Positions 12,284-35,998 of a DNA stretch of 64,000 bases are shown piece by piece. Within the stretch, counting starts at the first letter, position 1; each line of letters opens with the position of its first letter. A program made the position numbers and the translations under genes. The notes under the pieces were generated by a model, which searched no databases, was not told where the DNA came from, and worked only from the letters and a program-made list of their open reading frames with translations. The DNA is from an uncultured Desulfurellales bacterium (GTDB lineage Bacteria; Campylobacterota_A; Desulfurellia; Desulfurellales; Hippeaceae): assembly GCA_964544085.1 (NCBI GenBank), contig CAZIZT010000027.1:33676-97675 (forward strand). The letters are read 5' to 3'.

Positions 12284-12299
12284 GGCTCTTCTTCAACCC

Positions 12300-13636: not shown

Positions 13637-14365
13637 ATGTTTAGAGCTATTAAGCCCAAGCGAATTGCCGACTATATCGTTGAGCAGATAGAGAATTCCA
13701 TAAAACGAGGGGAGCTTTTACCCAACAGCAAACTGCCTTCCGAAAGGGAGCTTGCTCGTATATTTGAGGTCAGCCGATCATCTGTCAGGGAAGCCCTGAA
13801 TATACTCCAGGCCAAGGGTTTAATAGTGAGTACACAGGGTGAAGGTACGTTTGTCAGACCATTTACCGATCATATACTTGATGTTGATCTCAAAACGTTT
13901 ATCAAAGATGACCCTGCACTGATCTGGGACCTTGTTGAAATACGGAAGAATATAGAGCTGTGGGCAGTGAGGAAAGCTGCTGAAGTGGCAGACGAAGCCG
14001 ATCTTGAGATGCTTAAAGATGCTTTTAAGGAACTTTATGAGGATTTTATACATAAAAGAAACGATGAGCAGAGTGATGCTGAGTTTCACTTCAGCATCAT
14101 TAGGGCAACCAAGAATACCGTTTTGATGCACATGATGAGCTCCATATTCAAGTTGCTTAAAGAGGCAACCAATATGGGCCGACACTACCAGTTTGAGGTG
14201 AGAGGCCTTTCACGTGAGGGTTTGTTGAATGAGCACAGGGCGGTTTTTGAGGCAATAATGGAGCGTGATCCGGAGCTTGCTTACGAGAAGATGAAAAAGC
14301 ATCTGAGCTATATTGATGAGAATTTCAAGCGCTACCTGTACGAGCGCTATAACAGGGGTCAGTAG
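13637..14365 (+). CDS. GntR-family transcriptional regulator, FadR subfamily (wHTH plus FCD domain), LldR/PdhR-like
   Basis: 242 aa. N-terminal [31 protein letters not shown] followed by a helical FCD-type C-terminal domain. Divergent from the lactate operon. Confidence 0.85.
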
Positions 14366-16545: not shown

Positions 16546-17191
16546 CCTGTCTCCTTAAAAGCATTGTAGTATACTCTTTGCCGAAAATATTTTTCTCGCA
16601 GACGAATCCCAGATTTGAAAACCGAGATTTAACGGTGAAATTTTCTTCTGGTATAATGCCTGAGAGTATCATGTAACCACCTTTGCGGGTTACTTCCGCC
16701 AGCTTTTGAGACATCTTGAGAATGATATCATAGAATATGTTTGCAAGCACAATATCGAACTGCTCCTTTAGAAACTCAGGAGAGGATGCCAGGATACAGT
16801 TGATATTGTCAGTTTTATTTAAAGCTGCGTTTTCAATACACTCTTTTACTGCTCTTTCGTTTATGTCGAATGCCACCACATTACTGGCTCCCAGTTTTGA
16901 AGCTGCAATTGCCAGTATTCCTGTGCCTGTGCCTACATCAAGGACGCTTTTGCCCTTGACATTTAGGTTTTCAAGTAGACTAATGCACTCTGCTGTTGTC
17001 TCATGTACACCTGTTCCAAAGGCGTAGCCATGAGTTAGGGTTATCTTAATGCGATCCTCGGAATTGTACCATGGTGGTGCAACAATGAACCTATTGCCGA
17101 TCTCTATCGTTTTAGCCTCATCCTTAAAGCGCCAATACATGGTGGTTGCATTATACAAATTTTTGACTTTCGGTAAAGCTCCGCTTGTCAT
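16535..17191 (-). CDS. prmA: Ribosomal protein L11 methyltransferase-like SAM-dependent methyltransferase (short form)
   Basis: 218 aa with PPW...[10 protein letters not shown] and [13 protein letters not shown] motifs as in PrmA. An in-frame stop 15 nt upstream of the ATG prevents any N-terminal extension. Confidence 0.6.
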
Positions 17192-17526
17192 AATCGTTAT
17201 TTTTCATCTGCAAATCCTTTTCGGATGGATAAAAATTGCGCTTTTAATCTGACTGTAATCTTTTATTTGTACAATGCCTGCGCTTGAGTTTCTTTGCAGC
17301 CCGTTTGACCGGTGCTGCAGGGAAAGGGGGGTTACCATTATCTCTGCGGTTGTGCATAGATGCACATTCAACAAGCCGGGTCGTCTGTACTTATCGCAGA
17401 AAGAAAATCATATAAAACTTTACAAGTGTTGGCTTTTTTAAAGATTGGTTTTGTGGCCATGGGAGGATTTGTCTGTCCATGCAGAAGGCAATGGGTTTTT
17501 CATAAATACACTTGTGAGGAGGTAGT

Positions 17527-19500
17527 ATGCGGGTTAAAGGCATCATTGCGTTGGTTGCGGTTTCGCTCCTGTTGCTTGCGCCCTATAGTAGAGGTACAAC
17601 ACAGGAGGTGAACCTTGGTGAGGTTGTAGTGCAGGCTACTAAGTCCCAAACGAAGTTGAAGGATGTGCCTGCAACTGTGTATGTTATTACAAACAAACAG
17701 ATCAAGGAGAGCACAGACGAAAGGAACATCGGTGATGTACTCTGGAGCGTTCCGGGTGTTTTCAGCCAGGATAAGAGGCACACCGATGCAAATGTTCTCT
17801 ATTTCAGGGGGGTTACCCTGCACGATCATGTTACCTATGGTATTTTGGTGCTTATTGATGGTATTCCTATCAACAATGCTGATGGATGGGTCGATTTTGA
17901 AGGCATCGATTTCAATAATGTAAAACGCATAGAGGTCATAAAGGGGCCTGTCTCTGCCCTTTATGGGCCTGATGGTACAGTGGGTGTAATAAACATAGTC
18001 ACGAAGAACCCACCCAAAAAACTCACAATGAGAGCATCAGCATCCTATGGATCCTACAGAACATGGAAATTCACAACATCCGCAGGTAAAACATTCGGTA
18101 AGGTTGGCGTGATGCTTGATGCTATGCGCTACGGTTCAAGGGGATACAGACCGCGCAACACGAACTACGAAAGCAAGTTCTCAAGCAAAGTGACAGGCGA
18201 TTTGGGCAAACTCGGTAGATTGCTGTTCACATTTGATTATGTCAATTCCGATAAGGATATTCCGGGGCCGCTGAATGAAGCCCAGTTTCTTGCCCGTGAG
18301 ACCGTATCCACGAGAAAGTTTGCCGGTTCCAGCATGGATTTATATAGGGCGGGAATCGGATACAAGAAGGCATGGGATACAGACTCTCTCCACCTTAATC
18401 TTTATTACCATGGCAAGGTTTATGATGGTGGCTACAGTGACAGCTGGGTTGAGCACTATTATCTGAACCTGTTTGGCGCAGAAGCAAGATTTATCCAGCT
18501 GTTCAATCTGGGTTCTCTTGCTAACAAGCTGACTGTAGGAACAAGTGGATACACAGAGAGCGGTACAACGAAGATCTGGGCGAGGAATAGTGACGGAAGT
18601 AAGGGAAGGTTTTTGAGCAAGGGATACGGTCTCTACAGGGCACTGGGTTTGTACGGTCAGGATCAGATAACAATTATCAAACCACTTAAAGCAACGTTTG
18701 GTTTGAGATACGATCAGATTTATTACAAATACGAAGAGAAGTATCCGGGTTCCTCTGAGGACACAAAAACGTTGCACGCGTGGAGTCCAAAATTCGGTCT
18801 GACTTATGAGTTTGTGAAAAACCACGTTCTCTATCTGGATATAGGAAGAGGTTTTATACCTCCGACGTTACGCGAGATGTTCACATCAAGGTATGCCAAC
18901 AAGGATCTGAAACCTCAGTACCTAACCGATTATGAGACGGGCGTGAGGGGTTTAATAGCCTCTGTTTTGAGATACCAGCTTGCGGTCTACTACATGAAGT
19001 TCAAGGATCAGATCCAGTATGATCCAAACACGGATACTTACGAGAATATAGGCGACACGAAGCATAAAGGTGTTGAGCTTTCATTGAGCTATAGGATACT
19101 CAAGCACATTACATTAAGTGGTAATTACAGTTTCAATATCTCTCGCTTTGACAATGACCCGGTATACGGTAACAACTTTGTCAAAAAGGCACCAAAACAC
19201 CAGCTTGCTTTGGGAGCACTCTATTCCAACAATGGTTTCTCTTTCGGTGTTTGGCTTCGAAGGATCTGGAAATACTACATGGACAATGAAAACACCAAGT
19301 ATTACGGCGGCCACACTGTCGTAAACGCTAAGGTCTCTTACAAGGTTAAGAATTTCTTTGCGTCTCTGTATGTGAACAACCTGCTGGATAACAACTATGC
19401 CACATGGGCTACAAGATATCACTTCGGAAGAAGAACGGTCGATTATTACTATCCAGGCTGGCCAGTTAACATTATGTTTACCCTCGGTATGAAATTCTAA
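17527..19500 (+). CDS. TonB-dependent outer-membrane receptor (copy 1)
   Basis: 657 aa with a signal peptide, a plug domain (VVVQATK..., IEVIKGPVSALYG), a beta-barrel and a C-terminal aromatic residue (...TLGMKF). Confidence 0.88.
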   Translation: MRVKGIIALVAVSLLLLAPYSRGTTQEVNLGEVVVQATKSQTKLKDVPATVYVITNKQIKESTDERNIGDVLWSVPGVFSQDKRHTDANVLYFRGVTLHDHVTYGILVLIDGIPINNADGWVDFEGIDFNNVKRIEVIKGPVSALYGPDGTVGVINIVTKNPPKKLTMRASASYGSYRTWKFTTSAGKTFGKVGVMLDAMRYGSRGYRPRNTNYESKFSSKVTGDLGKLGRLLFTFDYVNSDKDIPGPLNEAQFLARETVSTRKFAGSSMDLYRAGIGYKKAWDTDSLHLNLYYHGKVYDGGYSDSWVEHYYLNLFGAEARFIQLFNLGSLANKLTVGTSGYTESGTTKIWARNSDGSKGRFLSKGYGLYRALGLYGQDQITIIKPLKATFGLRYDQIYYKYEEKYPGSSEDTKTLHAWSPKFGLTYEFVKNHVLYLDIGRGFIPPTLREMFTSRYANKDLKPQYLTDYETGVRGLIASVLRYQLAVYYMKFKDQIQYDPNTDTYENIGDTKHKGVELSLSYRILKHITLSGNYSFNISRFDNDPVYGNNFVKKAPKHQLALGALYSNNGFSFGVWLRRIWKYYMDNENTKYYGGHTVVNAKVSYKVKNFFASLYVNNLLDNNYATWATRYHFGRRTVDYYYPGWPVNIMFTLGMKF

Positions 19501-19521
19501 CAAGTTAGAGAGGAAATCTAA

Positions 19522-21510
19522 ATGGATTTGAAAAAACTTATTGTGAGCAGTGCGACGGCATGCGCACTGCTTTTGTCCTGTAGTGTTGTCTCGAAAGCGG
19601 CTCAGCCTGATGATGTGAATCTTGGTGAGGTGGTAGTGCAAGCTACCAAATCGGAAACAAAGCTTAAAGATGTACCAGCTACCGTGTATATAGTGACGGG
19701 CAAAGATATAAAACAGACCTCTGACACAAGGAATCTCGGAGATATACTCTGGGAAGTTCCGGGTATATTTGGTGAGGATAAAAGACATACGGATTCCAAT
19801 GTAATCTCATTCAGGGGTGTCACACTGCACGATTGGGTAACCTATGGCATACTTGTTCTTGTGGATGGAATACCGCTCAACGATGCAGATGGAAGAGTGG
19901 ATTTTGAGGGTATAAACCTTGATAATGTAAAACGCATCGAAGTCATAAAGGGGCCTGTATCTGCGCTTTACGGACCAAATGGCACGGTGGGTGTCATCAA
20001 TATAGTCACGAAGAATCCGCCCAAGAAACTTACTGGAAAGGCTTACGCTTCTTACGGTTCTTACAAAACGTGGAAGTTGTACACAGAGGGTGGAAAGAGC
20101 TTTAAAAATGTTGGCGTTTGGTTAAGTGCTATGAGATACGGCAGCCAGGGTTATAGACCAAGAAACTCCTATTTCGAGGATAAGCTCAGCGGTAAAGTAA
20201 CCGGCGATTTGGGCGATGCAGGCCACATAACGAGTGACTTGTACTACGGTCACGTCAGCAGAGAAACCCCTGGTCCACTGAATGAGGAGGAGTTCGAGAA
20301 CCAAGAAAGGATAGCCACAAGAGAATCTTCTTCTTCTGAGATGGATCTTTACAGACTCGGTGTGGCATACAGAAAAGCGTGGGATGCAAGTTCGATTCAT
20401 CTAAGTGCTTATTTCCATAGAAGAAAAAGGGATTCGCAATGGACCACTGGCATCACCAATGATCACATAAACACTTTTGGTAGCGAGGCAAGGTTTATCC
20501 AGAAGTACACGTTGTTTAATTTGCAGGACGCCTTTACCGTTGGGGCAAGCCTCATGACCGAGGGTGGTGTCTCCAAGTACTGGATGAGAAATAGAGATGG
20601 CAGTAAAGGCACACAAACGAGGGATGGATATTCAAGACAAACAAATTACGGTGTGTATGCGCAGAATGTATTAGCGTTGGCAAGACCCTTAAAGGTTACG
20701 CTTGGCGTGAGGTACGACAGAGTTCATTTCAAGTATGACGATAGAATCAAATCTAACGGTGACGATTCGGGCACGCGCACCATGGATGCCTGGAGTCCAA
20801 AGGTCGGCATTACGTATGAAGCATTTAAGGGTCAAACCTTTTACATCAACATAGGTAAAGGTTTCGTGCCTCCGACTCTTTACAGGCTTTTTTCCGGTAG
20901 GTATGCCAATAAGGATTTGAAGCCCCAGTATTTGACCGATTACGAGATTGGAGTAAGGGGCAATATTGCAACGAAACTTCACTATGAAATGGCTGTTTAT
21001 TACATGAAATTCAAGGATCAAATTCAATATGATCCTGTGACAGAGAGATATGAGAATATCGGTAATACAAAGCACAAAGGCTTCGAGGTATCTCTGAAGT
21101 ATAGATTCTTGAAGCACTTTATTTTGCGTGGTAATTACAGTTTCAATATCTCTCGCTTTGACAATGACCCGGTCTACGGTAACAACTTTGTCAAAAAGGC
21201 ACCCAAACACATGATGGGGCTGGGAGTTACCTACATTAACCGTGGTTTAACGTTGAGTATGTGGATGAGAAAGGTCTGGAAATACTACATGGACAATGAA
21301 AACACCAAGTATTACGGCGGATACACACTTTTGAACGCCAAGGTTTCCTATCATTGGCACAGGGTATTCGCATCCTTGTATGTGAACAACCTGCTGGACA
21401 ACAACTATGCCACATGGGCTACGAGGTACACAAGAAGAGGTAGAACAACAGACTACTATTTCCCGGGTTGGCCATTGAACGTAATGTTCACGCTGGGTAT
21501 GAAATTTTAG
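19522..21510 (+). CDS. TonB-dependent outer-membrane receptor (copy 2, tandem paralogue)
   Basis: 662 aa, same architecture as copy 1 and the same C-terminus TLGMKF. Starts 21 nt after copy 1. Confidence 0.88.
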   Translation: MDLKKLIVSSATACALLLSCSVVSKAAQPDDVNLGEVVVQATKSETKLKDVPATVYIVTGKDIKQTSDTRNLGDILWEVPGIFGEDKRHTDSNVISFRGVTLHDWVTYGILVLVDGIPLNDADGRVDFEGINLDNVKRIEVIKGPVSALYGPNGTVGVINIVTKNPPKKLTGKAYASYGSYKTWKLYTEGGKSFKNVGVWLSAMRYGSQGYRPRNSYFEDKLSGKVTGDLGDAGHITSDLYYGHVSRETPGPLNEEEFENQERIATRESSSSEMDLYRLGVAYRKAWDASSIHLSAYFHRRKRDSQWTTGITNDHINTFGSEARFIQKYTLFNLQDAFTVGASLMTEGGVSKYWMRNRDGSKGTQTRDGYSRQTNYGVYAQNVLALARPLKVTLGVRYDRVHFKYDDRIKSNGDDSGTRTMDAWSPKVGITYEAFKGQTFYINIGKGFVPPTLYRLFSGRYANKDLKPQYLTDYEIGVRGNIATKLHYEMAVYYMKFKDQIQYDPVTERYENIGNTKHKGFEVSLKYRFLKHFILRGNYSFNISRFDNDPVYGNNFVKKAPKHMMGLGVTYINRGLTLSMWMRKVWKYYMDNENTKYYGGYTLLNAKVSYHWHRVFASLYVNNLLDNNYATWATRYTRRGRTTDYYFPGWPLNVMFTLGMKF

Positions 21511-21566
21511 CTTGTCTGAGGGCTCCCCCATTTCTCCTAAGGGGGAGTCCATCTCTGGAGGATGCA

Positions 21567-22406
21567 ATGAGATACGTTATATTTGCCTTGTTGTTTATCC
21601 TTCTGCAGAACGTGCATGCCTTTGGTAATGAACTGTGGTTTGAGTCAGCAAGGGGTATGAACATGGGTGCTCGCACCTATGCAATATATTTTGGTAAGTT
21701 CCCGTCTCACAGGATGCAACCGGGGGCTCTAAATGGCGTACATGTTTTGTTGAAGGACTATACAAGTCACATAAGGCCGCTGAAGATCAAAAAGAGGAGA
21801 AGGGCCTATTGCGTAAGGGTTCCTGCAATTTTCAACGGCAATTACACGCTTATTGCCATGAAACGTGAGAAAAACAAAAACGTTTCTACCGTTTATGTTG
21901 CAAAGGTAAACTTCTATGTTAGGCATCAAAGAGACGGAAAAATCACCAGACCCAATGACGACATGGCTGTTTTTGGCCCACAGGTGCCCTTTGAGCTGAT
22001 CAGATTAAGGAGTCGAAGGGGTGAGCCGTTTTTCCTGTCACGAACAGGCCACAGGATACGTTTTCGAGTCTACTTTCACGGTAAGCCTGTTTCTGGTGCT
22101 GTCGTTGTTGTAACTACAAGAAGTGGCTGGAGCAAACGCATGATTAGTGATAAAAACGGAGAAGTTGAGTTTACAGCTATTCAGGATAGATTTCCTGCAT
22201 CAAAGTACAGGTGGAGACCGGAGATATACCTTGTAAGTGCCTTTTATACGAACAGTGGCACTCGATATGTTGCTACTTATCCGATTTATACGTACATATC
22301 GCCTGATGCATGGCGAAGCTATGCTGCAGGTATCTTCATACTGCTTGTGGTTATGCTTGCTGTAGGTTTGTGGGCATACTTCAAACGCCGGGAAAGCCGG
22401 TTTTAG
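21567..22406 (+). CDS. DUF4198-like (COG5266 CbiK-like) periplasmic protein with signal peptide and C-terminal TM anchor
   Basis: Start chosen at ATG 21567 (GGAGGA RBS, signal peptide MRYVIFALLFILLQNVHA). The segment FRVYFHGKPVSGAVVVVTTRSGW...DKNGEVEFTA resembles the transthyretin-like core of DUF4198. There is a hydrophobic C-terminal helix. Confidence 0.6.
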   Translation: MRYVIFALLFILLQNVHAFGNELWFESARGMNMGARTYAIYFGKFPSHRMQPGALNGVHVLLKDYTSHIRPLKIKKRRRAYCVRVPAIFNGNYTLIAMKREKNKNVSTVYVAKVNFYVRHQRDGKITRPNDDMAVFGPQVPFELIRLRSRRGEPFFLSRTGHRIRFRVYFHGKPVSGAVVVVTTRSGWSKRMISDKNGEVEFTAIQDRFPASKYRWRPEIYLVSAFYTNSGTRYVATYPIYTYISPDAWRSYAAGIFILLVVMLAVGLWAYFKRRESRF

Positions 22407-22415
22407 GGGGAATCT

Positions 22416-23378
22416 ATGAAGGTTAGAAACTTGCGATGGTTAATTCAGTTCATAGCCTTTGCCGTTCTGGTTTACGGTGGTTTGGTAGCTATAGATCTTG
22501 GCAATAAGCTTCCAACCTTCGCATGCAGGTATGTGGATTCAAGAGGCGGTATGTGTTTTTTGTTTCCGTTTCAGATGCTCCTTGAACACACGCCGTTTCA
22601 AGCCTATTTCATGCATCATGGGTACAGGGCGATCCGCCTGCTCGAATACTTTGGCACCTTTTTTGTGCTTGCAATTATTCTTAACAAGGCATGGTGCGGC
22701 TGGCTGTGTCCATTTGGTTTTCTGCAGGATCTTGCTTCAGAACTGAGAAGTGCACTCAATATTCGTTACTCTTTTATGAAATGGTCCACAAGGGACAGGC
22801 TGCAGTGGGTCAAGTACGGTTTCCTGTTCCTGTTTGTTTTCATTTTGCCGCTTATGATGGCAAATCATCTCTTTTCACCGACAGTTACCAGGGATTTGAG
22901 CAATCCTTTCTGTCAGATATGCCCGGCACGGTTGATACTGCCTATAGCAGAGGGCAACTTCAGCCAGATATACCTTGATACTTCAAGTGGCGTTAAGTTT
23001 GTTCTTACTTCGCTTGCACTATTAATTGCCGGCATTAGTGTGATTGGTGCGTTTTTCTACAAGCGATTTGTATGCCGGTTCTGCCCTATGAATGCTTTTC
23101 TTTCGCTGTTTGATAGGGTAGGTTTTATGCAGCTTAAAAAGGATCCTCAGAAATGCACCAAATGTGGTAACTGCTATCGTGTTTGTCCTATGGAGATAAG
23201 AGAGATCTATCTTGAAGATAAGAAGAGTAATGTGCTTAATCAGGATTGTATGCTCTGTCTGAGATGTATAGAATCCTGCCCGGAGGATGGTGCGCTTAAG
23301 GCAACCTACCTTGGCAAAGCCATCTTTACGTCGTCGAGCAAGGGATTTTTTGAAAGGCAGAATGCCGATAAAAAGTAA
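22416..23378 (+). CDS. Membrane-bound polyferredoxin, NapH/MauN-like (4Fe-4S binding)
   Basis: 320 aa with several TM helices. Has CGWLCPFG, CQICP and CRFCP motifs, plus a C-terminal 2x[4Fe-4S] domain (CTKCGNCYRVCP, CMLCLRCIESCP). Confidence 0.75.
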   Translation: MKVRNLRWLIQFIAFAVLVYGGLVAIDLGNKLPTFACRYVDSRGGMCFLFPFQMLLEHTPFQAYFMHHGYRAIRLLEYFGTFFVLAIILNKAWCGWLCPFGFLQDLASELRSALNIRYSFMKWSTRDRLQWVKYGFLFLFVFILPLMMANHLFSPTVTRDLSNPFCQICPARLILPIAEGNFSQIYLDTSSGVKFVLTSLALLIAGISVIGAFFYKRFVCRFCPMNAFLSLFDRVGFMQLKKDPQKCTKCGNCYRVCPMEIREIYLEDKKSNVLNQDCMLCLRCIESCPEDGALKATYLGKAIFTSSSKGFFERQNADKK

Positions 23379-23396
23379 CTGAACGGAGGAAAAAAG

Positions 23397-24614
23397 GTGA
23401 ACACAGAAGCTATCGATCTGTTAAACGAGCTGAGGAATAAAAGGAAAACTCCAGAAAACATGGGCTATTTTTACGATGTGCTTGAAAGTGTTTATAATAC
23501 GGAGAAGGAACCGGTATTTAAGAAGTTCAACAAAAGGCTTATCGGGACGTACTGCGTTCTTGTGCCTGAAGAGCTTATATATGCCGTTGATGCCATACCT
23601 GTGAGGCTTTGCGGTGGCTCTTACGAAACATCACTTCTGGCTGAAGAGCACTTCCCGGCAGGGTCGTGCTCGTTGACGAAGTCATCGTTTGGTGCTTTCA
23701 AATCCGATGAGTTTCCCTGGATCAAGGATGTTGAGGCGCTTGTTGCACCTGCTACATGCGACTGGAAGAAGAAATTCGGCGATCTGGATATAGATAAGCC
23801 TATTCATATGATGAATGTTCCGTTCTCCAAAAAACGCGATTCGGCTGGGAGGGCATGGCTCGAGGAGACTTACGAGTTAAAGGATTTTTTAGAGAAAATA
23901 ACGCGTAAAAGGATTACGAAAAATAGCCTGATGGCTGCTATAGAGAAGCTCCAGAAGGCTCACATGGAATTTCGAAGGCTTTATGAGTTGAGAAAGAAGA
24001 GACCGTCGGTTATCGGTGGTGTTGATTCATTGATCGCTCTCAATGCCTTTTTCTTTGCTGAGGCTTCTGAATGGGCTCAAGCAATGTCAGCTTTGGTGGA
24101 TGAGCTTCAAAAAAGGGCTCAGTCAGGTGAGAGTGTATGTAGAAAAAACACACCCCGTCTGCTTGTGACGGGTTCTCCTGTGATTTTCCCCAATATGAAA
24201 ATTTTGACATTGATCGAGGAGTCCGGTGGTATAGTTGCAATAGACGATCTGTGTTCTTCTGTCAGGTATATATACGATGAAGTGGCTGTTGATGAGCGCA
24301 ACATGTTCGACATGATGAGAGCTATTGCTGATAGGTACCTCTTTCCCTGCATGTGTCCAATATTCACGCCGAGCGACGATAGGATTACAAGAATTCTTGA
24401 TCTGATTGAGGAGTTTAACATCGACGGGGTTATTTACCACGTTCTTGTGGGTTGCCACCTGTTTGATTTTGAGTTTCCACGTATGATGAAGGAGCTTTCA
24501 AAGATTGATGTGCCTGTTTTGAGAATAGAAACAGACTACAGCCCTGAGGACGTGGAACAGATGAGAACCAGGATCGAGGCGTTTATTGAGACCGTCAGGG
24601 AAAAGAGGAGGTAG
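23397..24614 (+). CDS. 2-hydroxyacyl-CoA dehydratase / BcrB-BadD family protein, stand-alone single subunit (double-cubane-cluster-protein-like)
   Basis: 405 aa with a GTG start after GGAGGA. Conserved-looking cysteines occur in RLCGG, GSCSL, ATCDW, DLCSS, PCMCP and VGCH. There is no second dehydratase subunit, and the activase gene follows after 1 nt. Confidence 0.65.
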   Translation: MNTEAIDLLNELRNKRKTPENMGYFYDVLESVYNTEKEPVFKKFNKRLIGTYCVLVPEELIYAVDAIPVRLCGGSYETSLLAEEHFPAGSCSLTKSSFGAFKSDEFPWIKDVEALVAPATCDWKKKFGDLDIDKPIHMMNVPFSKKRDSAGRAWLEETYELKDFLEKITRKRITKNSLMAAIEKLQKAHMEFRRLYELRKKRPSVIGGVDSLIALNAFFFAEASEWAQAMSALVDELQKRAQSGESVCRKNTPRLLVTGSPVIFPNMKILTLIEESGGIVAIDDLCSSVRYIYDEVAVDERNMFDMMRAIADRYLFPCMCPIFTPSDDRITRILDLIEEFNIDGVIYHVLVGCHLFDFEFPRMMKELSKIDVPVLRIETDYSPEDVEQMRTRIEAFIETVREKRR

Positions 24615-24615
24615 T

Positions 24616-25413
24616 ATGGGATACTTCGTTGGTGTAGACATCGGCACCACATCTACTAAGATTGCAATCATCGACGATTCTTGCAAGCTTTTAAACCATC
24701 TTGTTGTTTTATCGGGAGCTGATTTCAAACGGTCTGCGGATGAGGCATTCGAGACACTCCTTGAGAAGACAAACGTTAAAGAAAGCGAGGTTGAATACAT
24801 TGTCTCAACGGGCTATGGACGCAAGCTCGTTGATTTTGCGGATGAGTCTATAAGCGAGATATCAGCCAACGCCAAGGGCGCAAGTACCATAGGCAGACTA
24901 AATGGTGTTTCCATCAGGACGATAATAGACATTGGAGGTCAGGATAGCAAGGTTATCTCGCTTGACGAAAACGGTAAGGTAAACAACTTTACAATGAACG
25001 ATAAATGTGCAGCAGGTACAGGTAGATTTCTTGAGTCGATGGCACGTGTTCTTGAGGTTAACATAAGCAACTTTGGAGAGTTATTGCTCCAATCCAACCA
25101 GCCCGTGAAGATTAACAGCACCTGCACCGTTTTTGCAGAAACGGAGGTTATCTCCCATCTTGCAAGGGGTCAGAGGAAGGAGGACATAGTTGCAGGGATT
25201 CACCGCTCCATAGTTCAAAGGATAATGGCACTGGGCAAACGTGTAGGCATCAGGGAGGTTGTACTTCTGAGTGGTGGACCTGCAAAGAATGAGGGCCTTG
25301 TTAAGACCATGAAAGAGATGCTGGGTATGGAGGTGTTTGTTCCTGAGCATCCGCAGGTGGTGACAGCATTTGGCGCTGCGATAATTGCAAAGGAAAGAAG
25401 TGGAGATGAGTAG
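24616..25413 (+). CDS. BcrA/BadF/HgdC-type ATPase (activase / ATP-dependent electron-transfer component)
   Basis: Start at ATG 24616 (AGGAGG RBS). Has an ASKHA-fold N-terminus (GVDIGTTSTKIAI) and the cluster-bridging cysteine contexts NDKCAAGTGRF and NSTCTVFAE typical of HgdC-like activases. Confidence 0.85.
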   Translation: MGYFVGVDIGTTSTKIAIIDDSCKLLNHLVVLSGADFKRSADEAFETLLEKTNVKESEVEYIVSTGYGRKLVDFADESISEISANAKGASTIGRLNGVSIRTIIDIGGQDSKVISLDENGKVNNFTMNDKCAAGTGRFLESMARVLEVNISNFGELLLQSNQPVKINSTCTVFAETEVISHLARGQRKEDIVAGIHRSIVQRIMALGKRVGIREVVLLSGGPAKNEGLVKTMKEMLGMEVFVPEHPQVVTAFGAAIIAKERSGDE

Positions 25414-26056
25414 TCTTTACGATGCGTTTGGCTTCTTTACGGTAGGTCTGTTTAGTGGCATTGTTTTCTGTGGATTTGGTTGCCCTGCCTTTATAGGTGT
25501 TTACGTTTCAGCGCTGAGCGAAGATGTGAAGCAAAGCTTGATCATTACTGCTCTGTTCAATCTCGGTCGGGTAGCTGTTTATCTACTGCTTGCCTTTCTC
25601 TCTGTTTATTTGGGCAGGGCTGTGGTGGAGAGTTTAGGTATTGCGCCGCATATTGTGTTGATATCGATGATGGTGGCAATTGGGCTTGTGTTGAGCTTCT
25701 CAAAACCAAAGAGCAACTGTTCAACCGGTTCTTTCTCTTCAGCCTACAGAAGGCTGCTCTCACGCTCCAAATTTTCGGCTTTATTGATAGGGGCTGTTAC
25801 TGGGTTAATACCCTGTTTACCATTTTCGGCGGTTGTGGCATATGCTGTGAATAGCTCATCGCTTGCCAATGCTATGGTTGCTGCAGCCTCTTTCGGGCTT
25901 GGTAGCTCCATAGCCTATCTGTTGGTTGTGGGGGCGCTTCTGGGACTGTTTGCAAAGAGTGTGAGTCTTCGCATTGCCAACAAGGCGATCTTTAACAGGA
26001 TTTGCGGTGTAATAATTCTACTGATAGCTTTTAAAGATATCCTTGTCCTGCTTTAA
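25406..26056 (+). CDS. CcdA/DsbD_2-like polytopic membrane protein (thiol:disulfide or metal conduit)
   Basis: About 216 aa with about 6 TM helices. Cys-Pro motifs sit in two helices (FGCPAF and LIPCLPF), as in CcdA/DsbD-type proteins. The start is ambiguous (TTG 25385 or ATG 25406). Confidence 0.5.
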   Translation: MSSLYDAFGFFTVGLFSGIVFCGFGCPAFIGVYVSALSEDVKQSLIITALFNLGRVAVYLLLAFLSVYLGRAVVESLGIAPHIVLISMMVAIGLVLSFSKPKSNCSTGSFSSAYRRLLSRSKFSALLIGAVTGLIPCLPFSAVVAYAVNSSSLANAMVAAASFGLGSSIAYLLVVGALLGLFAKSVSLRIANKAIFNRICGVIILLIAFKDILVLL

Positions 26057-26066
26057 GGAGGCGAAC

Positions 26067-27323
26067 GTGAGCAGGCTAATCTGTGTTGTTTTAATGGTCG
26101 TTATCTCATCGGTTGTTTCTGTAAATGTGTTTGCCACAACCAGAGTTGTGAAAAGGAAATATATCACGGCTTATTACAACAGCAAAGGAGAACTCACACG
26201 GGTGGATATCGATTCAAACCATAACGGCAGAATGGACACGGTTAAGTACATCAGCAAAGGTAGGGTGTATAAGGTTAAAAGGGACGCCAACGGAGATGGT
26301 CGCTTTGATACCTACATCTTTTTCGAAGACGGCAAGGTTTCAATGATAAAGAAAGACACAAACGGTGACGGTAAACTGGATACGTATATCTATTTCAGGA
26401 AAGGCCATCTCTACAAAACGGAAAAGGATACCAATCATGATGGCAGAATTGATTACGTTCTTGTTCATAAGGGTCACGGTTTAGCACTGGAAAAGATAGA
26501 TACCAACCACGATGGGAAGTTTGACACCGTGAACTTCTATAGACACAGAAGGCTCTATAAATGTGTGCAAAACGGTAAGGTTGTCCTCTACGGCAAAAAC
26601 GGCTTACCATTAAAAATAAAAGATGGCAAAGCACATTACGTCTATAAAAATGGGAGACTTAGTAAGGTGGAATTTAAATATAGAGTGATTGCCTATAAAG
26701 ATGGAAAGAAGAGTTTTGAAAAGATAGATACCAACCACGACGGGAAGTTCGATCTGTTTGTCTATTACCGCAATGGTACAGTGTATAAGGTTGAGAAGGA
26801 TACAAATTACGATGGACGTATAGATGCTGTTGAAACCATAGCCGGAAATACGAGAAAGCTAAGGGTAGATAAGAATCACAATGGCTTTTTCAATATAACA
26901 CTGACGTTTAAGAACGGAAAGCTTATACAAAAGGAGTTTTTCAAGAAGGGTTGTAGTCTGCCTTATCGAATTGAAAGCAAGACCAAGATAATGGTGGATA
27001 GTAACTGTGACGGCAAATATGAAAAGATTGAAAAGATAAGACCTGATCGCATAGATATTCTCGTTGATGCCAATCATGACGGGAAGTTTGACTGTGAGTA
27101 TGTGTATTCGCCAAAGCACAAACTTGTTGAGGTGTTGAAAGACACCAACCATGATGGAAAATTCGACACATTCATAACATACAACGGCAAAGAGTGCTAC
27201 ACTATCAGCCGGGATAGTGACTTCAACGGCATGGTGGATCTTTGGAAGAAATACAAGGATGGAAAGCTCGTCTCTGTGGAGAGGGATCTAAATGGAGACG
27301 GCAAGCCCGACATTACATACTAA
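26067..27323 (+). CDS. Secreted repeat protein with about 13 DxNxDG (EF-hand/FG-GAP-like) putative cation-binding loops
   Basis: GTG start after AAGGAGG and signal peptide VSRLICVVLMVVISSVVSVNVFA. The unit (E/K)KDTNHDGK(F/I)D-x-hYY-x-G-x-hYK repeats with a period of about 24 aa. Confidence 0.7.
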   Translation: MSRLICVVLMVVISSVVSVNVFATTRVVKRKYITAYYNSKGELTRVDIDSNHNGRMDTVKYISKGRVYKVKRDANGDGRFDTYIFFEDGKVSMIKKDTNGDGKLDTYIYFRKGHLYKTEKDTNHDGRIDYVLVHKGHGLALEKIDTNHDGKFDTVNFYRHRRLYKCVQNGKVVLYGKNGLPLKIKDGKAHYVYKNGRLSKVEFKYRVIAYKDGKKSFEKIDTNHDGKFDLFVYYRNGTVYKVEKDTNYDGRIDAVETIAGNTRKLRVDKNHNGFFNITLTFKNGKLIQKEFFKKGCSLPYRIESKTKIMVDSNCDGKYEKIEKIRPDRIDILVDANHDGKFDCEYVYSPKHKLVEVLKDTNHDGKFDTFITYNGKECYTISRDSDFNGMVDLWKKYKDGKLVSVERDLNGDGKPDITY

Positions 27324-27345
27324 GCTTGTGAAGAGGTGTTCTTAA

Positions 27346-27987
27346 ATGTGGGATCTTATACAGAAATCTGGCGTCTTTGGTTACCTTATTATTGTCTGCT
27401 CGGTTTTTTCTGTTGCAATCATACTGGAGCGTTACTTTGCATTTAGAAGGATAAAACTGAAGGATCCGGATTTTATCATTCGTATAGTTGAAGCGCTCAA
27501 CAAAGGTGAAATAGAAAAACTGCTCCCGGAATTGGAGAGGTCAAAGTCTCCTGTTGTGAGGATAGTTTATGAAATTATAACAAGGCATGTAAGCTCGGGC
27601 AATGGCAGGGAATCAAAAGAAGCAGTGGAGAGGACAATACACTTCATTGCTGAAAGAGAAGTGAGAGAGATGGAGAAATACCTACCGTCTCTTGCATCCA
27701 TTGCGCAGGTTTCTCCCTTGCTTGGTCTGCTTGGTACGGTGGTTGGAATGATCAAGGCTTTCATGGTTATCCAGTCCTATGGCGGTAGGGTCAATGCGCA
27801 GGTACTCGCAGGGGGTATCTGGGAAGCTATGCTCACAACAGCAATGGGCCTGATAGTTGCTATTCCCTCTATGCTTGCCTACAACTACTTCAATGCACGA
27901 ATAAACAAAACAATAGGTTTAATGGATGAGATAAGCAACGAACTTATCCATGCGCTGGAGAAGGCAAACTACTTCAAGGAGAGCTGA
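27346..27987 (+). CDS. exbB: MotA/TolQ/ExbB proton-channel protein
   Basis: 213 aa with 3 TM helices and a conserved C-terminal channel region (LGLLGTVVGMI...GGIWEAMLTTA). Followed by exbD and tonB. Confidence 0.88.
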   Translation: MWDLIQKSGVFGYLIIVCSVFSVAIILERYFAFRRIKLKDPDFIIRIVEALNKGEIEKLLPELERSKSPVVRIVYEIITRHVSSGNGRESKEAVERTIHFIAEREVREMEKYLPSLASIAQVSPLLGLLGTVVGMIKAFMVIQSYGGRVNAQVLAGGIWEAMLTTAMGLIVAIPSMLAYNYFNARINKTIGLMDEISNELIHALEKANYFKES

Positions 27988-27989
27988 TC

Positions 27990-28400
27990 ATGATTAACAT
28001 AAAAAGAAGGGCAACCTCCAGCGAAGGCGCCAATATCAATCTCACGCCATTGATAGATATTGTTTTTCTGCTGCTTATATTCTTTATGTTGACGGCAAAT
28101 TTTGTCGTCAATGAGGGAATAAAAATAAAGTTACCCGAGACCAAAGCTCGTTCAGAGTTAGCGAAGAAGCCTATTGTTGTGTATTTGACAAAGGACAACA
28201 GAATATACTTCAAGGGAAGGTTCGTCACGTTGGACCAATTGAAGACTCTTTTACCCCAACAGATAGCTGAGAATGTGACAAAAACGGTTGTTCTTAAGTC
28301 TGATAAGAACGCTAAGGTTGATATAGCTGTGAAGATCCTCGATGTAGCCAAACTATCAGGCGCAAAGAAGTTTATAATCGCCACCCGGAAAGAGGAATGA
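27990..28400 (+). CDS. exbD: Biopolymer transport protein ExbD/TolR
   Basis: 136 aa. N-terminal INLTPLIDIVFLLLIFFM is the ExbD/TolR signature helix. Confidence 0.88.
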   Translation: MINIKRRATSSEGANINLTPLIDIVFLLLIFFMLTANFVVNEGIKIKLPETKARSELAKKPIVVYLTKDNRIYFKGRFVTLDQLKTLLPQQIAENVTKTVVLKSDKNAKVDIAVKILDVAKLSGAKKFIIATRKEE

Positions 28401-29119
28401 GTACATCAGAAAAGAGATTCCTGCTCATTCTTTTCTTTTCAATTGTTTTACATGCGGGCATACTGGTGGTTTTCAGTTTATCGTTTCAGAAGCCCGACGA
28501 GAATGAGAACAGGGTAGAGATCAATCTGAATAACTACCAGTTGCCCCGTGATACACCCATAGAACAGCCTGTGGAACCGGAGAAGATGACGCGATTAAAT
28601 TTTAACCAGATAGAGATACCTAAAGACAATGTTCAACCTGAAAAGATAAAACGTGTAAAGAGGATCCTGAAGGAGCGTGTGACCGATTACAGCGAATTGG
28701 CGAAATTGCCTGAAAATATCCCACAAAACTATCCCTTGCCGCAGCCGGTGGTGACACATAAGCCAGCAAAAAAGCCTCTACGACACCCTGCACCAGCAGT
28801 TGCTGGAAATCCGCATTTGCTTTCTATATACTTGCGAAGGGTTAGAGGTATCATCGAGTCTCACAAGATGTACCCTCTCTCTGCGAAAGAGAATGGGGTG
28901 GAAGGTAAGGTGCTTTTGGAGTTCACTCTGCTTAGGAACGGAAATATTGCATCGTTGAGAATACTTCGCTCATCTGGTTCGGATGCACTCGATAGGGCAG
29001 CTAAACGAGCTATACTTGATTCTGTTCCCTTTCCACCGTTTCCTGCCGGGGTAAAGCGCAAAAGGTTGCATGTGAAGCTTTACATAGTATTTAAACTCGA
29101 AGAAGAAGACGAATGGTGA
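28397..29119 (+). CDS. tonB: Energy transducer TonB
   Basis: 240 aa with an N-terminal anchor, a Pro-rich spacer (PQPVVTHKPAKKPLRHPAP) and a C-terminal TonB domain (YPLSAKENGVEGKVLLEFTL...). Confidence 0.85.
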   Translation: MSTSEKRFLLILFFSIVLHAGILVVFSLSFQKPDENENRVEINLNNYQLPRDTPIEQPVEPEKMTRLNFNQIEIPKDNVQPEKIKRVKRILKERVTDYSELAKLPENIPQNYPLPQPVVTHKPAKKPLRHPAPAVAGNPHLLSIYLRRVRGIIESHKMYPLSAKENGVEGKVLLEFTLLRNGNIASLRILRSSGSDALDRAAKRAILDSVPFPPFPAGVKRKRLHVKLYIVFKLEEEDEW

Positions 29120-30486
29120 AAAGGGTTTTCTCTTTCGTATTACTTGTGGTTATCCTAACTGCATGTGTTTCTACACACCAGAAGAATTTGAAAGTTCATC
29201 TGCAGAGCCGGTATGTTAATAAGACTGAGCCGGCTGGTGAGTTTGGGAGTAGCTGGTGGCGCTCGTTCAAAAGCGATGAACTCAATAGCCTCATACAAAG
29301 GGCTCTTGCATCCAACTACGACTTAGCCATCGCTCTAACGAAACTCAAAGAGGCTGTTCTTGGCTACAGGATGAGCAAGAAGCGGTTACTACCTGAAGTG
29401 AACACTACTTTCAGCTACTCTCGTACCAGAAGGAATCAAAGCGGCTTTAAGAGTACATCCAGGAGTGCATCCCTCGGGTTTGCCGCAAACTATGAGGTTG
29501 ATCTCTGGAGCAAGATTAGAAACGGTATCGACGTCTATAGACTTGAGAAGGAAAAGGCTTGTTACTATTACGATACAGCCATGATATCGCTTTTATCGAC
29601 ATTGACAGACAACTGGTTGGTGTGTGTCTCGGTAAACGAGAAGCTTCCAATACTGAAAAAGCGCATGAAAATATTGAGCAAGAAGGTAAAACTTTTGGGC
29701 TATGGTTACAAGGAGGGGACATACACCTTGAGCGAATATCTGTTGGCAAGGGATAATCTGGAAAGACTCAAAACCCAGCTTGCGCAGTTGAAGGCAGATT
29801 ACAGAACCGCACTCGGGCACATAAAGACAATACTCGGCTTAAAACAGAACGATGATTTGACTGTTAGAACCAGCAAATTGCCGAATATACTGGCTCCACT
29901 GGACATAGGTAAACCGTATATGCTGCTTGAGCGCAGACCCGATATACGCAAAGCTTACGCAAACCTTAAGGAAGCTTATCTGAACGTGAAGATAGCAAAA
30001 GCAGAAAGACTGCCGCAATTTTCACTTTCTGCTCAGCTTAGCTACTCAACCATAAAGGACAGCATAGTGGATCTTATTAACAATTGGTTTTACTCATTGG
30101 CAGCCCGCATTGCGTATGTTTTGGTAGATTTCAATAGAGCTAAGTTGAATGAGAAAATAAAGCAGGTTGCTACTAATGGTGCGATGCTTGAGTATAAGAA
30201 AACGGTTTTGAAAGCCGTCGAAGAGGTTGAGGATGCTTACATTCGTCTTCGGGTGGCAAGAAAGAATGTGAATTCACTAAAAAAGACAATTGCAAACGCA
30301 AAGATAAGACTCGGTTTAGCGAGGCAGCGATATCTATCAGGGCAATCGGATGTGATAGCGTATCTGTCTGCTCTGGATTCGCTACTGGCCTATCGGATGC
30401 AACTTGTGGACTTGCAGCAGGTCTATCTGACAGACCTGGTTAACCTCTACCAAGCCGCAGGGGGGATATATTGCAATGAAGAATAA
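29113..30486 (+). CDS. Efflux outer-membrane factor lipoprotein (NodT/TolC family)
   Basis: 457 aa with lipobox LTAC near the N-terminus and two OEP-type repeats. Overlaps tonB by 7 nt and the adaptor gene by 11 nt. Confidence 0.8.
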   Translation: MVKRVFSFVLLVVILTACVSTHQKNLKVHLQSRYVNKTEPAGEFGSSWWRSFKSDELNSLIQRALASNYDLAIALTKLKEAVLGYRMSKKRLLPEVNTTFSYSRTRRNQSGFKSTSRSASLGFAANYEVDLWSKIRNGIDVYRLEKEKACYYYDTAMISLLSTLTDNWLVCVSVNEKLPILKKRMKILSKKVKLLGYGYKEGTYTLSEYLLARDNLERLKTQLAQLKADYRTALGHIKTILGLKQNDDLTVRTSKLPNILAPLDIGKPYMLLERRPDIRKAYANLKEAYLNVKIAKAERLPQFSLSAQLSYSTIKDSIVDLINNWFYSLAARIAYVLVDFNRAKLNEKIKQVATNGAMLEYKKTVLKAVEEVEDAYIRLRVARKNVNSLKKTIANAKIRLGLARQRYLSGQSDVIAYLSALDSLLAYRMQLVDLQQVYLTDLVNLYQAAGGIYCNEE

Positions 30487-31630
30487 GATAGTTTCTGTAA
30501 TTTTGATTATCATGATTGTAGCAGCCGGTGTGTATGTAAGCGATTATTTGAAATCGCACAGGCGCAAGCCTCACAGGTGGAAACGCAGGGCAATGCCAGT
30601 TTATGTGGAAACAAAGAAAGCTGTGCGTGTAAATATCCGCTACAGAATAGAGGGCTTTGGCAATGTTGAAGCAATGAGAGATGTTACCCTTGTGCCTGAG
30701 GTATCGGGCAAGGTGATATGGGTGAATAGCAAGTTTTATCCGGGGGGATACTTCAAAAAGGGTGAGGTTATATTGAAAATTGACCCTACCGATTACAGGC
30801 TGGATCTGATAAAGAAAAAGGCTGCTCTTGAATCGTTACGGGAGGATTTAAAGATAGAGCAGGGCAAAAGAAGGGCAGCTTTTAAGGAGTATATGGCAGC
30901 AAAGGGCGTTATAAGAGGTGGTTTTGACAACAGCTCTTTGTATTTAATTCTAAGAGAGCCCTATTTAAAGAAGCTTCAGGATTCGATTAAGCGCGCAGAG
31001 GCAGATCTCAAACTGGCAGAGATCAGGCTTTCGAAAACGGTTGTAAAGGCGCCATTTGATTGTTATGTAGTTGCTCGGTATGTGAACCTTGGTTCGTACC
31101 TTTCTGCGGCAAGCCGAATTGCAGAGGTGGTATACTCGAACGCTTACTACATAAAAGCCTTCATACCTGTGGAAGAATTGAAGCAGCTGGGTAATTACCT
31201 GCACGATCCGGTGCGGGTCTATTTTTCAAAGAATGATGTATATTCTGCACATATCATCTCTATTTTGCCAGATGTTGACAAGAAAGGGTTGCTTGCGGGT
31301 TTGTTGCTTGTAGTAAAGGGTTTGGATGATCCTCTTTCTGGTTTAAAGCTGAACAATTATGCAAAGGTTGTGATAGAGGGTAAGAAGCTGGAGGATGTTA
31401 CGAGGATACCAGTAAGAGCCCTTAGAGAAAACTCACGCGTCTGGCTATACGTAAACGGTAGGCTAAAAATCAAGACGATCAGTGTGGTGTTCAGGGATAA
31501 GCATTTCGCTTACACATACGATGTTAAACCCGGTAGTGATGTGATAGTCTCTGAAATTGCTACCCCTGTTGAAAATATGAGACTTTACAAGGGCACAGAT
31601 GACAAGGATCATAAAGTTTTTTATAGATAA
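30476..31630 (+). CDS. Efflux RND periplasmic adaptor (HlyD/MFP family)
   Basis: 384 aa with an N-terminal TM helix, a coiled-coil hairpin and barrel-sandwich hybrid features. Lies between the OMF and RND genes. Confidence 0.8.
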   Translation: MKNKIVSVILIIMIVAAGVYVSDYLKSHRRKPHRWKRRAMPVYVETKKAVRVNIRYRIEGFGNVEAMRDVTLVPEVSGKVIWVNSKFYPGGYFKKGEVILKIDPTDYRLDLIKKKAALESLREDLKIEQGKRRAAFKEYMAAKGVIRGGFDNSSLYLILREPYLKKLQDSIKRAEADLKLAEIRLSKTVVKAPFDCYVVARYVNLGSYLSAASRIAEVVYSNAYYIKAFIPVEELKQLGNYLHDPVRVYFSKNDVYSAHIISILPDVDKKGLLAGLLLVVKGLDDPLSGLKLNNYAKVVIEGKKLEDVTRIPVRALRENSRVWLYVNGRLKIKTISVVFRDKHFAYTYDVKPGSDVIVSEIATPVENMRLYKGTDDKDHKVFYR

Positions 31631-35995: not shown

Positions 35996-35998
35996 GCA

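Follow-up and report, generated by a model that had tools for sequence, protein, structure and literature searches.

A membrane-wired, uptake-associated clade of double-cubane cluster proteins with a possible role in reducing TonB-imported metal chelates

Double-cubane cluster proteins (DCCPs) are an enzyme class that is well described in structure and mechanism and has been without a known natural substrate since 2018; papers of 2020 and 2025 both state that their physiological function is unknown (PMC7317905, PMC11971306). The characterised example is the DCCP/DCCP-R pair of Carboxydothermus hydrogenoformans (CHY_0487/0488; structures 6ENO and 7YYL), in which a protein with a seven-cysteine motif is encoded beside an archerase-type ATPase. 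In the class I benzoyl-CoA reductase BzdNOPQ, an archerase passes ATP-energised electrons to an [8Fe-9S] cluster that in BzdNO is not the active site but relays or stores electrons for a site further downstream (PMC11971306). Here we describe a 64,000-nucleotide stretch of DNA from an uncultured Desulfurellales bacterium (assembly GCA_964544085.1, contig CAZIZT010000027.1, positions 33,676 to 97,675 of the forward strand), which as a whole we call the window. At 22416-26056 on its + strand lie four genes, for a NapH-like membrane polyferredoxin, a DCCP, an HgdC/DCCP-R-type ATPase (the activase) and a DsbD_2-family membrane protein, directly preceded by a gene for a DUF4198-like periplasmic protein. 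An initial annotation, made from the letters of the DNA, had proposed an ATP-driven low-potential reductase flanked by two membrane redox conduits inside a TonB uptake locus, and its description of the four genes proved accurate in each detail that we checked, down to the 1-nt spacing and the cysteine contexts. Our best explanation, in our view an even bet, is that the four genes form the redox centre of an operon for TonB-dependent acquisition (17527-34673) and encode an ATP-boosted, membrane-wired reductase that processes TonB-imported metal chelates, these being corrinoid or cobalt compounds in a sister clade.

Judged by its sequence and its predicted fold, the 405-residue protein is a DCCP rather than part of a dehydratase, and its partner is an ATPase of the archerase type. 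Its sole Pfam match is HGD-D (329.8 bits), and against NCBIfam NF040772 ('double-cubane-cluster-containing anaerobic reductase'; FldB/C sequence cluster IV), the DCCP class that we tested, it scores 352.0 bits with a cutoff of 350, a narrow pass that fits a divergent clade. Alignment to the C. hydrogenoformans DCCP (6ENO/7YYL) runs over the full length, with E 1e-68 and 32-34% identity. The initial annotation had singled out a lone HgdB/BcrB-family protein with at least seven conserved-looking cysteines, and had let its reading hang on whether these align with cluster ligands: seven of the nine cysteines present (C53, C72, C91, C121, C286, C320 and C353) align one-to-one with the motif cysteines of 6ENO. 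They are spaced 18/18/29/164/33/32, two of these values falling 1-2 residues below the range of the published motif, CX19CX18-19CX29CX166-170CX32-34CX32C (PMC7317905), and among 37 relatives six of the seven are invariant and C72 is at least 90% conserved. Structure prediction, which had been proposed as a check, gave an AlphaFold2 (AF2) model with a mean confidence (pLDDT) of 89, whose top PDB matches are 7YZM, 6ENO and 7YYL (TM-scores 0.89-0.90; root-mean-square deviation 2.0 A to 7yyl_A) and for which DCCP structures outrank BzdN and HadC. The proposed profile scan likewise found all four expected domain types, namely HGD-D, BcrAD_BadFG, Fer4_5 plus 2x[4Fe-4S], and DsbD_2. As a subunit of a dehydratase or benzoyl-CoA reductase the protein was rejected, since it misses the corresponding equivalogs (HadC, 134 vs 700 bits; BzdN, 113.7 vs 453.8; BcrC, 67.9 vs 421). 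Within the window and the related loci the claim that it has no partner subunit held too: a DCCP-clade profile built from alignment A1 found no second relative at E<=10 in the 64-kb window, and most related loci also have only one HGD-D gene, with paralogues in Acetobacterium and a few generic loci. Having no adjacent second HGD-D gene fits a homodimeric DCCP. The closest database relatives, at 42-47% identity, lie on contigs with the same gene order. In two loci, L001 748-1970 and L002 670-1892 (related metagenome-assembled genome, Logan assembly), the DCCP gene is 79% identical and is called as pieces of 308 and 103 aa, which is either a frameshift or an assembly error.

The arrangement around this gene recurs widely. 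A single-sequence DCCP scan of genome contigs gave no match; a profile scan with one genome per species was then used and yielded 80 DCCP loci, in which open reading frames (ORFs) were called and searched with the window proteins. Wherever flanks are present, the 19 closest loci (L003-L021) have a NapH-like and/or a DUF4198-like gene beside the DCCP gene, in the order DUF4198-like, NapH-like, DCCP, together with a TonB-dependent receptor (TBDR) and usually an activase and a DsbD_2 gene; they come from Sedimenticolaceae, Rhodospirillales, Hyphomicrobiales, Desulfobacterales (including strain NaphS2), Desulfovibrionales, Desulfobulbus, Spirochaetes and Thiohalomonadaceae. Loci from Thermoplasmata, Bathyarchaeota, Pacearchaeota and Acetobacterium hold the NapH-like, DCCP and activase genes and are missing the outer-membrane parts, and the 41 most distant loci (L045-L085) consist of DCCP and activase only, without a NapH-like or DUF4198-like gene. 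In the reciprocal test, in which a NapH-like profile was run against metagenome contigs, a DCCP match lay directly downstream in every evaluable locus that was retrieved; 21 NapH-like loci that a script had flagged as lacking a DCCP have over-extended ORF starts and an overlapping DCCP match. Pooling covers 99 diderm-type loci, with the evaluable loci as denominators. The DCCP gene adjoins the NapH-like gene in 89 of 90, the DUF4198-like gene lies directly upstream of the NapH-like gene in 81 of 81, the activase is next to the DCCP in 63 of 66, DsbD_2 is present in 51 of 59 and a TBDR in 43 of the 54 loci of at least 10 kb. The TonB uptake context that the initial annotation saw in a single locus is therefore, with these receptor and periplasmic-protein counts, a conserved one, and DsbD_2 is common yet dispensable in the module.

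In a neighbour-joining tree the NapH-linked DCCPs fall outside the generic DCCP-plus-activase clade that holds the characterised C. hydrogenoformans enzyme. Their gene order spans Proteobacteria, Campylobacterota, Desulfobacterota, Spirochaetota and Planctomycetota, and, without the TBDR, archaea and Acetobacterium. Because it recurs in about 100 independent loci, the arrangement lies far beyond chance, and the window locus, together with roughly 100 relatives, marks out a DCCP clade that is membrane-wired and associated with uptake. Five loci (L112, L117, L119, L121 and L123; for example L121 28-4681, - strand) carry paralogous modules with a TBDR, a DUF4198-like gene, a divergent NapH-like gene and mostly DsbD_2, and with no DCCP of their own. 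These lie beside, or divergent from, a complete DCCP module; either they share their neighbour's DCCP or the membrane part works without one. We also saw no activase beside the DCCP in L090, L004 and L161.

The activase begins 1 nt past the DCCP stop. Spacing, profile matches (Pfam BcrAD_BadFG, 214.7 bits; TIGR00241, 268.4 bits) and alignment agree with the initial description of an HgdC/BcrAD_BadFG ATPase with both bridging-cysteine contexts, in that NDKC131AAGTG and STC170TVFAE, both cluster-ligand cysteine motifs, align with HadI, HgdC, MbdQ and DCCP-R. Overall the protein scores nearer HadI, HgdC and MbdQ (224-227 bits) than DCCP-R (149 bits).

The upstream gene had been described as a membrane polyferredoxin with CX3CP/CX2CP motifs and 2x[4Fe-4S], and we find Fer4_5 and the motifs CGWLCP, CQICP and CRFCP. 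By sequence, its product is a NapH-type polyferredoxin of a distinct subfamily: it scores 87.5 bits against a cutoff of 213 for TIGR02163 and 82.5 against 234 for NF007013, and napG and napA are absent from its operon context. Sixteen cysteines are invariant among 50 NapH-like sequences, namely two CX2CX2CX3CP motifs, C94/C98 and C220/C223 on the predicted cytoplasmic side, and C37/C47 and C166/C169 in predicted periplasmic loops. The NapH of E. coli shares the motif after the second transmembrane helix (TM2), the motif after TM4 and the two ferredoxin motifs, and is without C37, C47, C166 and C169 (the last two in PFCQICP) and the loop segments that hold them. Topology was assigned from the four helices of the AF2 model, the Lys/Arg count of each loop and the published NapH topology, and because these agree in placing the two cysteine-bearing loops outside, we predict a four-cysteine site facing the periplasm. 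The subfamily is small (142 representative clusters at E<=1e-30 among 1.84 billion proteins), and its membrane part has no sequence or fold match in the PDB. Long archaeal-type members carry N-terminal extracytoplasmic extensions, such as the protein of about 590 aa in L025 (8054-9820), whose long extension has no Pfam match, and in the 1203-aa protein P0357 a NapH-like core is joined to a large, anchored domain of about 700 aa that lies outside the cytoplasm. Such natural fusions, read from sequence, hint at a physical association between the polyferredoxin and anchored extracytoplasmic domains. Five long forms weakly match the Ig-like core of the DUF4198-like profile; in hhalign comparisons the Thermoplasmata N-terminal extensions show no homology to that profile. 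The initial annotation had also called the polyferredoxin a dedicated electron input. As a conserved partner it stands, with a DCCP directly downstream in nearly all pooled loci; it may serve as an electron input or an output, and we judge electron export via the polyferredoxin at least as likely as import.

A signal peptide and a beta-rich domain are constant features of the DUF4198-like proteins, as is a C-terminal anchor whose tail is rich in Arg, and several relatives carry His/Met/Gly-rich inserts. The window protein is hydrophobic at both its N-terminal and its C-terminal end and reaches 25.9 bits for Pfam DUF4198 (cutoff 34), and the L004 relative is among those that pass. At the other end of the four-gene set, the DsbD_2 protein (71 bits, cutoff 24.9; about six hydrophobic segments) likely starts at the ATG at 25406, giving an 8-nt overlap with the activase stop. 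The Cys-Pro motifs claimed for two of its helices are confirmed by FCGFGCP and IPCLP, and across 14 homologues C22/C26 of a CX3CP motif in TM1, a loop cysteine and P-C137-x-P in TM4 are conserved (residues counted from the Met at 25406). The protein may move either reducing equivalents, as had been suggested, or a metal. A word-indexed search for homologues of this protein returned only the query itself, and the PDB holds no sequence or fold match to it. The archaeal DsbD_2 protein of L025 (12149-13675) has 509 aa, with a long N-terminal extension that lacks a Pfam match.

Fourteen + strand ORFs run across 17527-34673 with intergenic gaps of -32 to +56 nt, and the four core genes were confirmed within this run (Table 1). 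The surrounding genes bear out the TonB uptake locus that had been proposed, with two TBDRs, ExbB and ExbD recognised by Pfam and TonB by orthology.

Table 1. Genes of the operon-like run, with the evidence for each name
Feature	Position in window	Strand	Evidence or remark
TBDR1, 657 aa	17527-19500	+	Plug + TonB_dep_Rec_b-barrel (Pfam); first gene of operon-like run
TBDR2, 662 aa, tandem paralogue of TBDR1	19522-21510	+	Pfam, NCBIfam
DUF4198-like periplasmic protein, 279 aa	21567-22406	+	Signal peptide, C-terminal membrane anchor, weak Pfam
NapH-like membrane polyferredoxin, 320 aa, four helices	22416-23378	+	Fer4_5 plus 2x[4Fe-4S] domain
Double-cubane cluster protein (DCCP), 405 aa	23397-24614	+	HGD-D, NF040772, seven Cys, AF2 fold
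HgdC/DCCP-R-type ATP-dependent [4Fe-4S] electron-transfer ATPase (activase), 265 aa	24616-25413	+	BcrAD_BadFG, TIGR00241
DsbD_2-family membrane protein, 216 aa, six segments	25406-26056	+	Pfam DsbD_2
Secreted repeat protein, 426 aa	26043-27323	+	11 DxNxDGxxD motifs
ExbB	27346-27987	+	Pfam
ExbD	27990-28400	+	Pfam
TonB	28397-29119	+	Orthology to L086 gene with TonB_C/TonB_2
TolC-like OEP	29113-30486	+	Orthology to L086 gene with OEP match
Putative membrane-fusion protein, 384 aa	30476-31630	+	Named from position between OEP and RND alone
Resistance-nodulation-division (RND) pump (ACR_tran)	31599-34673	+	Orthology to L086 gene with ACR_tran match

A close relative of the window organism (L086) has the same gene order with a single TBDR (7165-9102), which is 73% identical to TBDR2 and 58% to TBDR1, so that TBDR2 is the closer orthologue; the two window receptors are 62% identical to each other. 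Between window and relative, the redox core is better conserved (NapH-like 87%, activase 85%, DCCP 79%) than the periplasm-exposed proteins (DUF4198-like 52%, DsbD_2 47%). The best NCBIfam family of both window receptors is the TonB-siderophore family TIGR01783, at 209.5 and 208.9 bits, just under the cutoff of 223.5, which the L004 orthologue exceeds (227.6 bits). Receptors are siderophore-like in the window and its subclade, B12-like in L102 and L147, and heme-like in L018, L020 and L110. The efflux genes of the window (OEP, membrane-fusion candidate, RND) overlap or abut the uptake genes; the L086 orthologue of the membrane-fusion candidate is without any Pfam match. Pumps are co-encoded in the window, L086, L007, L009 and L117, that of L009 being inferred from gene size alone. 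The repeat protein, encoded between DsbD_2 and ExbB, has its calcium-loop-like motifs mostly 24 residues apart and was found only in the window and the close relative (52% identity), with no homologue in the other loci.

A hint to the substrate comes from regulation in a sister subclade. In ten of its loci (L008, L015, L016, L017, L018, L020, L102, L110, L134 and L147) a cobalamin riboswitch (RF00174) lies directly upstream of, and on the same strand as, the first operon gene. These operon-proximal aptamers score 75-112 bits, and eight lie 29-170 nt from the first gene, those of L008 and L015 about 440-460 nt from it. By a protein-query census, cob/btu-like genes occur in 7 of the 10 riboswitch loci, in 2 of the 91 other module loci and nowhere in the window. 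L008 has a BtuF-like protein and a corrin methylase followed by a second riboswitch-TBDR-CobN unit, L016 has ChlI/D-like genes and CbiZ just upstream of the module, L017 has CbiK behind a divergent riboswitch and L015 has CobN behind a second one. In L102 and L147 the ATP:corrinoid adenosyltransferase CobA is encoded between a BtuB-like TBDR and the DUF4198-like gene, with CobD, a CobC-type aminotransferase, CobQ and BtuC/ATP-binding cassette (ABC) genes as neighbours, the BtuC/ABC genes lying behind a second riboswitch in L102. The six riboswitch loci sampled in the tree group together as one subclade, whereas the window falls into the other. The substrate class of the sister subclade is probably a corrinoid or cobalt complex. 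Co(II)/Co(I) is among the few biological couples that would warrant an ATP-boosted reductase. The initial suggestion of a metal released from an imported chelate, or of a tetrapyrrole, is in keeping with the riboswitches and cob/btu genes of the sister subclade; the window's own subclade shows neither. Siderophore-type receptors and an efflux pump inside the operon point, for the window, to reductive metal release from a recyclable chelator, by analogy with the pyoverdine system. 

Other regulatory scans returned little. Upstream of the window operon no Rfam family was found at gathering score or E<=1, and searches in L086, the close relative, and in two cultured carriers, L090 and L091, likewise found none. 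Consensus scans for Fur, Zur, NikR and PerR over 16 non-riboswitch operon starts did not rise above shuffled controls, the upstream regions of window and L086 align poorly and share no palindrome, and a promoter/terminator scan gave counts at chance level. In L090 (Sulfurimonas hongkongensis) a perfect 9-bp inverted repeat, AAAATGTAT-GAAT-ATACATTTT, precedes the second TBDR (7049) and could be an operator. Among the sister-subclade loci, L020 (Desulfobulbus) has a radical S-adenosylmethionine gene between the TBDR and the DUF4198-like gene (6466-7581) and, in an unusual arrangement, two tandem cobalamin riboswitches ahead of a B12-dependent methylmalonyl-CoA mutase and MeaB, and L016 (Desulfosarcina) has a TldD/PmbA pair after the activase (12051-14908).

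We propose the following scheme. The receptor would import a tightly chelated metal, a corrinoid or cobalt compound in the riboswitch subclade and a siderophore-like chelate in the window, and the anchored DUF4198-like protein would hold it at the inner membrane. In the cytoplasm the activase would spend ATP to drive an electron onto the [8Fe-9S] cluster of the DCCP, which would dock on the ferredoxin domain of the NapH-like protein, and the very low-potential electron could then pass via the polyferredoxin to the outward cysteine site. There the bound metal centre would be reduced and labilised; the freed ion might enter through the cysteine-lined DsbD_2 protein, and the emptied ligand might be expelled by the co-encoded TolC-type efflux pump. 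We favour outward delivery because the invariant trio would span the envelope, from a protein anchored on the periplasmic side, through a transmembrane polyferredoxin whose cysteines lie on both predicted faces, to a DCCP in the cytoplasm, and because ATP is available only inside the cell. In its most specific form, the DUF4198-like protein, the NapH-like protein and the DCCP, with the activase, would make a trans-envelope 'electron injector' that reduces inert TonB-imported chelates at a periplasmic cysteine site, a proposal that we think less likely than not.

Several observations count against this scheme. The redox or metal site at the periplasmic cysteines and the crossing of the membrane by the electron are both hypothetical, and no intramembrane cofactor is evident in the polyferredoxin. 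No conserved His or Cys metal site was found among 18-19 DUF4198-like homologues. The activase is missing in 3 of 66 pooled loci and DsbD_2 in 8 of 59. The window lacks a cobalamin riboswitch (no RF00174 at gathering score, and none at E<=1 in 17100-17600), no cob genes were found in the context of the window and its subclade, and that subclade shows no recognisable Fur, Zur or NikR box. CobA inside the L102 and L147 operons would equally fit a cytoplasmic reduction of Co(II) to Co(I). Finally, in the characterised DCCP it is the cluster itself at which small molecules are reduced, the electrons coming from its activase (PMC7317905).

These last two points lead to the main rival, reduction at the DCCP in the cytoplasm, which we consider doubtful. 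The compound would cross the inner membrane, through the DsbD_2 protein or a separate Btu-type ABC transporter, and be reduced by the DCCP, corrinoids going from Co(II) to Co(I) to feed CobA; the NapH-like protein would merely anchor the reductase at the entry site or feed the activase with membrane electrons. CobA requires cob(I)alamin, and its position between TBDR and DUF4198-like gene in L102 and L147, with CobD, CobC-type and CobQ genes nearby and BtuC/ABC genes behind the second L102 riboswitch, is explained equally well on this account. What it leaves unexplained is the invariant anchored protein in the periplasm and a polyferredoxin with four extra loop cysteines predicted to face outward. 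Quinol-level electrons, moreover, are far too positive to feed an archerase unless extra energy is supplied, and the window's subclade is without cob context. The way the known DCCP works, at its own cluster, speaks for the cytoplasmic account, as does the established precedent of ATP-driven corrinoid reductive activases (Table 1 of PMC7317905); against it, the solved DCCP has narrow substrate channels that would not admit even a CoA ester (PMC7317905).

It is also conceivable, though unlikely in our view, that the module serves an envelope thiol or sulfur pathway, with the NapH-like and DsbD_2 proteins exporting dithiols in the manner of CcdA/DsbD and keeping periplasmic cysteines, persulfide or polysulfide reduced, the DCCP and activase acting as cytoplasmic electron source and the TonB genes being loosely linked. 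The DsbD_2/DsbD_TM Pfam matches would suit such a pathway, and so would the conserved cysteine pairs in the predicted periplasmic loops of the NapH-like protein and in TM1 and TM4 of DsbD_2. However, disulfide reduction requires no potential like that of an ATP-boosted [8Fe-9S] cluster, DsbD_2 is not in all loci, no thioredoxin-like, cytochrome c maturation or Sox genes were found among the neighbour genes scanned in the window and related loci, and the riboswitches and cob context would go unexplained. That the genes do not form one system at all, and that a generic DCCP/activase pair, or a dehydratase or benzoyl-CoA reductase subunit with a distant partner, sits by chance amid transport genes, is highly improbable. 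One might cite for it that HGD-D is the only Pfam match and that Joint Genome Institute annotations name relatives 'BcrC/BadD/HgdB'; the gene order recurs, however, in about 100 loci across many phyla, the seven motif cysteines and the NF040772 score mark a DCCP where the HadC, BzdN and BcrC cutoffs are widely missed, and a DCCP-clade profile found no second relative in the window. On this evidence we rejected both the dehydratase/benzoyl-CoA reductase reading and that of chance juxtaposition.

Elsewhere in the window, a Moco riboswitch (RF01055, molybdenum/tungsten cofactor; 87 bits) lies directly upstream of genes for an ABC ATPase, an SBP_bac_11 binding protein and a permease (47773-50483), probably a transporter for molybdate or tungstate. 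A cluster on the - strand at 34679-44270, convergent with the uptake operon, encodes a PaaK-like AMP-binding enzyme, a 450-aa protein, an exporter of the MFS_3 (EntS-type) family, a GNAT protein and a fusion of LuxC with an AMP-binding domain; its products may synthesise and secrete a small molecule, possibly the very chelator that the neighbouring operon imports. At 5194-9069, also on the - strand, LUD-domain, CCG and 4Fe-4S proteins (LutB-like, HdrD-like) are encoded next to an FAD-linked oxidase and tripartite ATP-independent periplasmic (TRAP) transporter genes. This group is of the kind with which anaerobes use lactate or glycolate and is unrelated to the DCCP module.

Why might such a module matter? 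A full-text search of a limited literature collection found no paper that joins double-cubane proteins with a riboswitch, cobalt or TonB, or that describes the module. The genomic wiring narrows the search for a DCCP substrate to the low-potential reduction of imported metal complexes, with corrinoids and cobalt as first candidates. If the electron injector proves true, double-cubane proteins would gain their first physiological role, the B12 regulon would gain a new member, and metal release would have a new route that spares the ligand. The corrinoid cobalt-reduction step in anaerobes is poorly defined, and the module is a candidate for it; it may also exemplify ATP-driven reducing power that is put to use at the cytoplasmic membrane or across it. 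Genetics and biochemistry are feasible, since four carriers are in culture: Sulfurimonas hongkongensis, Desulfobotulus mexicanus, strain NaphS2 and Desulfosarcina ovata.

How, then, does the window compare with the systems that are already known? With the C. hydrogenoformans DCCP and DCCP-R it shares the fold, the seven-cysteine motif and the adjacent archerase-type ATPase; it differs in that its DCCP stands in a clade of its own, is tied to a membrane polyferredoxin as obligate partner and lies in an uptake operon. The relay logic of BzdNOPQ is that which we propose for electron transfer from the DCCP to the polyferredoxin, but in Bzd, which is a soluble heterotetramer, BzdO holds an active site for the CoA ester, whereas the window has no second HGD-D subunit. 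In the corrinoid activases RACo and RamA, ATP hydrolysis reaches the Co(II)/Co(I) potential (Table 1 of PMC7317905), a parallel to the sister subclade with its modules amid cobamide genes. RACo and RamA are, however, unrelated proteins with unrelated cofactors that act on cytoplasmic, protein-bound corrinoid and lie outside uptake operons, and no corrinoid link was found for the window. The polyferredoxin shares with the NapH/MauN/NosH type four transmembrane helices, CX3CP after TM2, Cys-x-x(x)-Cys-Pro after TM4 and a C-terminal 2x[4Fe-4S] domain; compared with E. coli NapH it has longer predicted periplasmic loops, four extra cysteines and a DCCP as partner. Metal-related relatives of NapH-type polyferredoxins are FtrD of FtrABCD and the cupric reductase CcoG. 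The DsbD_2 protein has its Pfam domain and its Cys-Pro motifs in TM1 and TM4 in common with CcdA/DsbD, yet it has the extra cysteine of CX3C, a loop cysteine and no thioredoxin partner. Members of the DUF4198 family (Zcp, IsDUF4198) are periplasmic Zn/Ni/Co binders that are often encoded beside TBDRs (PMC12663993, PMC12537917). The window protein, in contrast, scores below the Pfam cutoff, lacks the conserved His triad and has a C-terminal membrane anchor. Periplasmic reductive iron release is the task of the pyoverdine system, with FpvGHJK and the PvdRT-OpmQ recycling pump. It has no sequence relationship to the window operon and no ATP-driven low-potential stage, and the likeness is one of analogy only: in both, a TBDR, an inner-membrane reductase, a periplasmic binder and a chelator efflux pump are encoded together.

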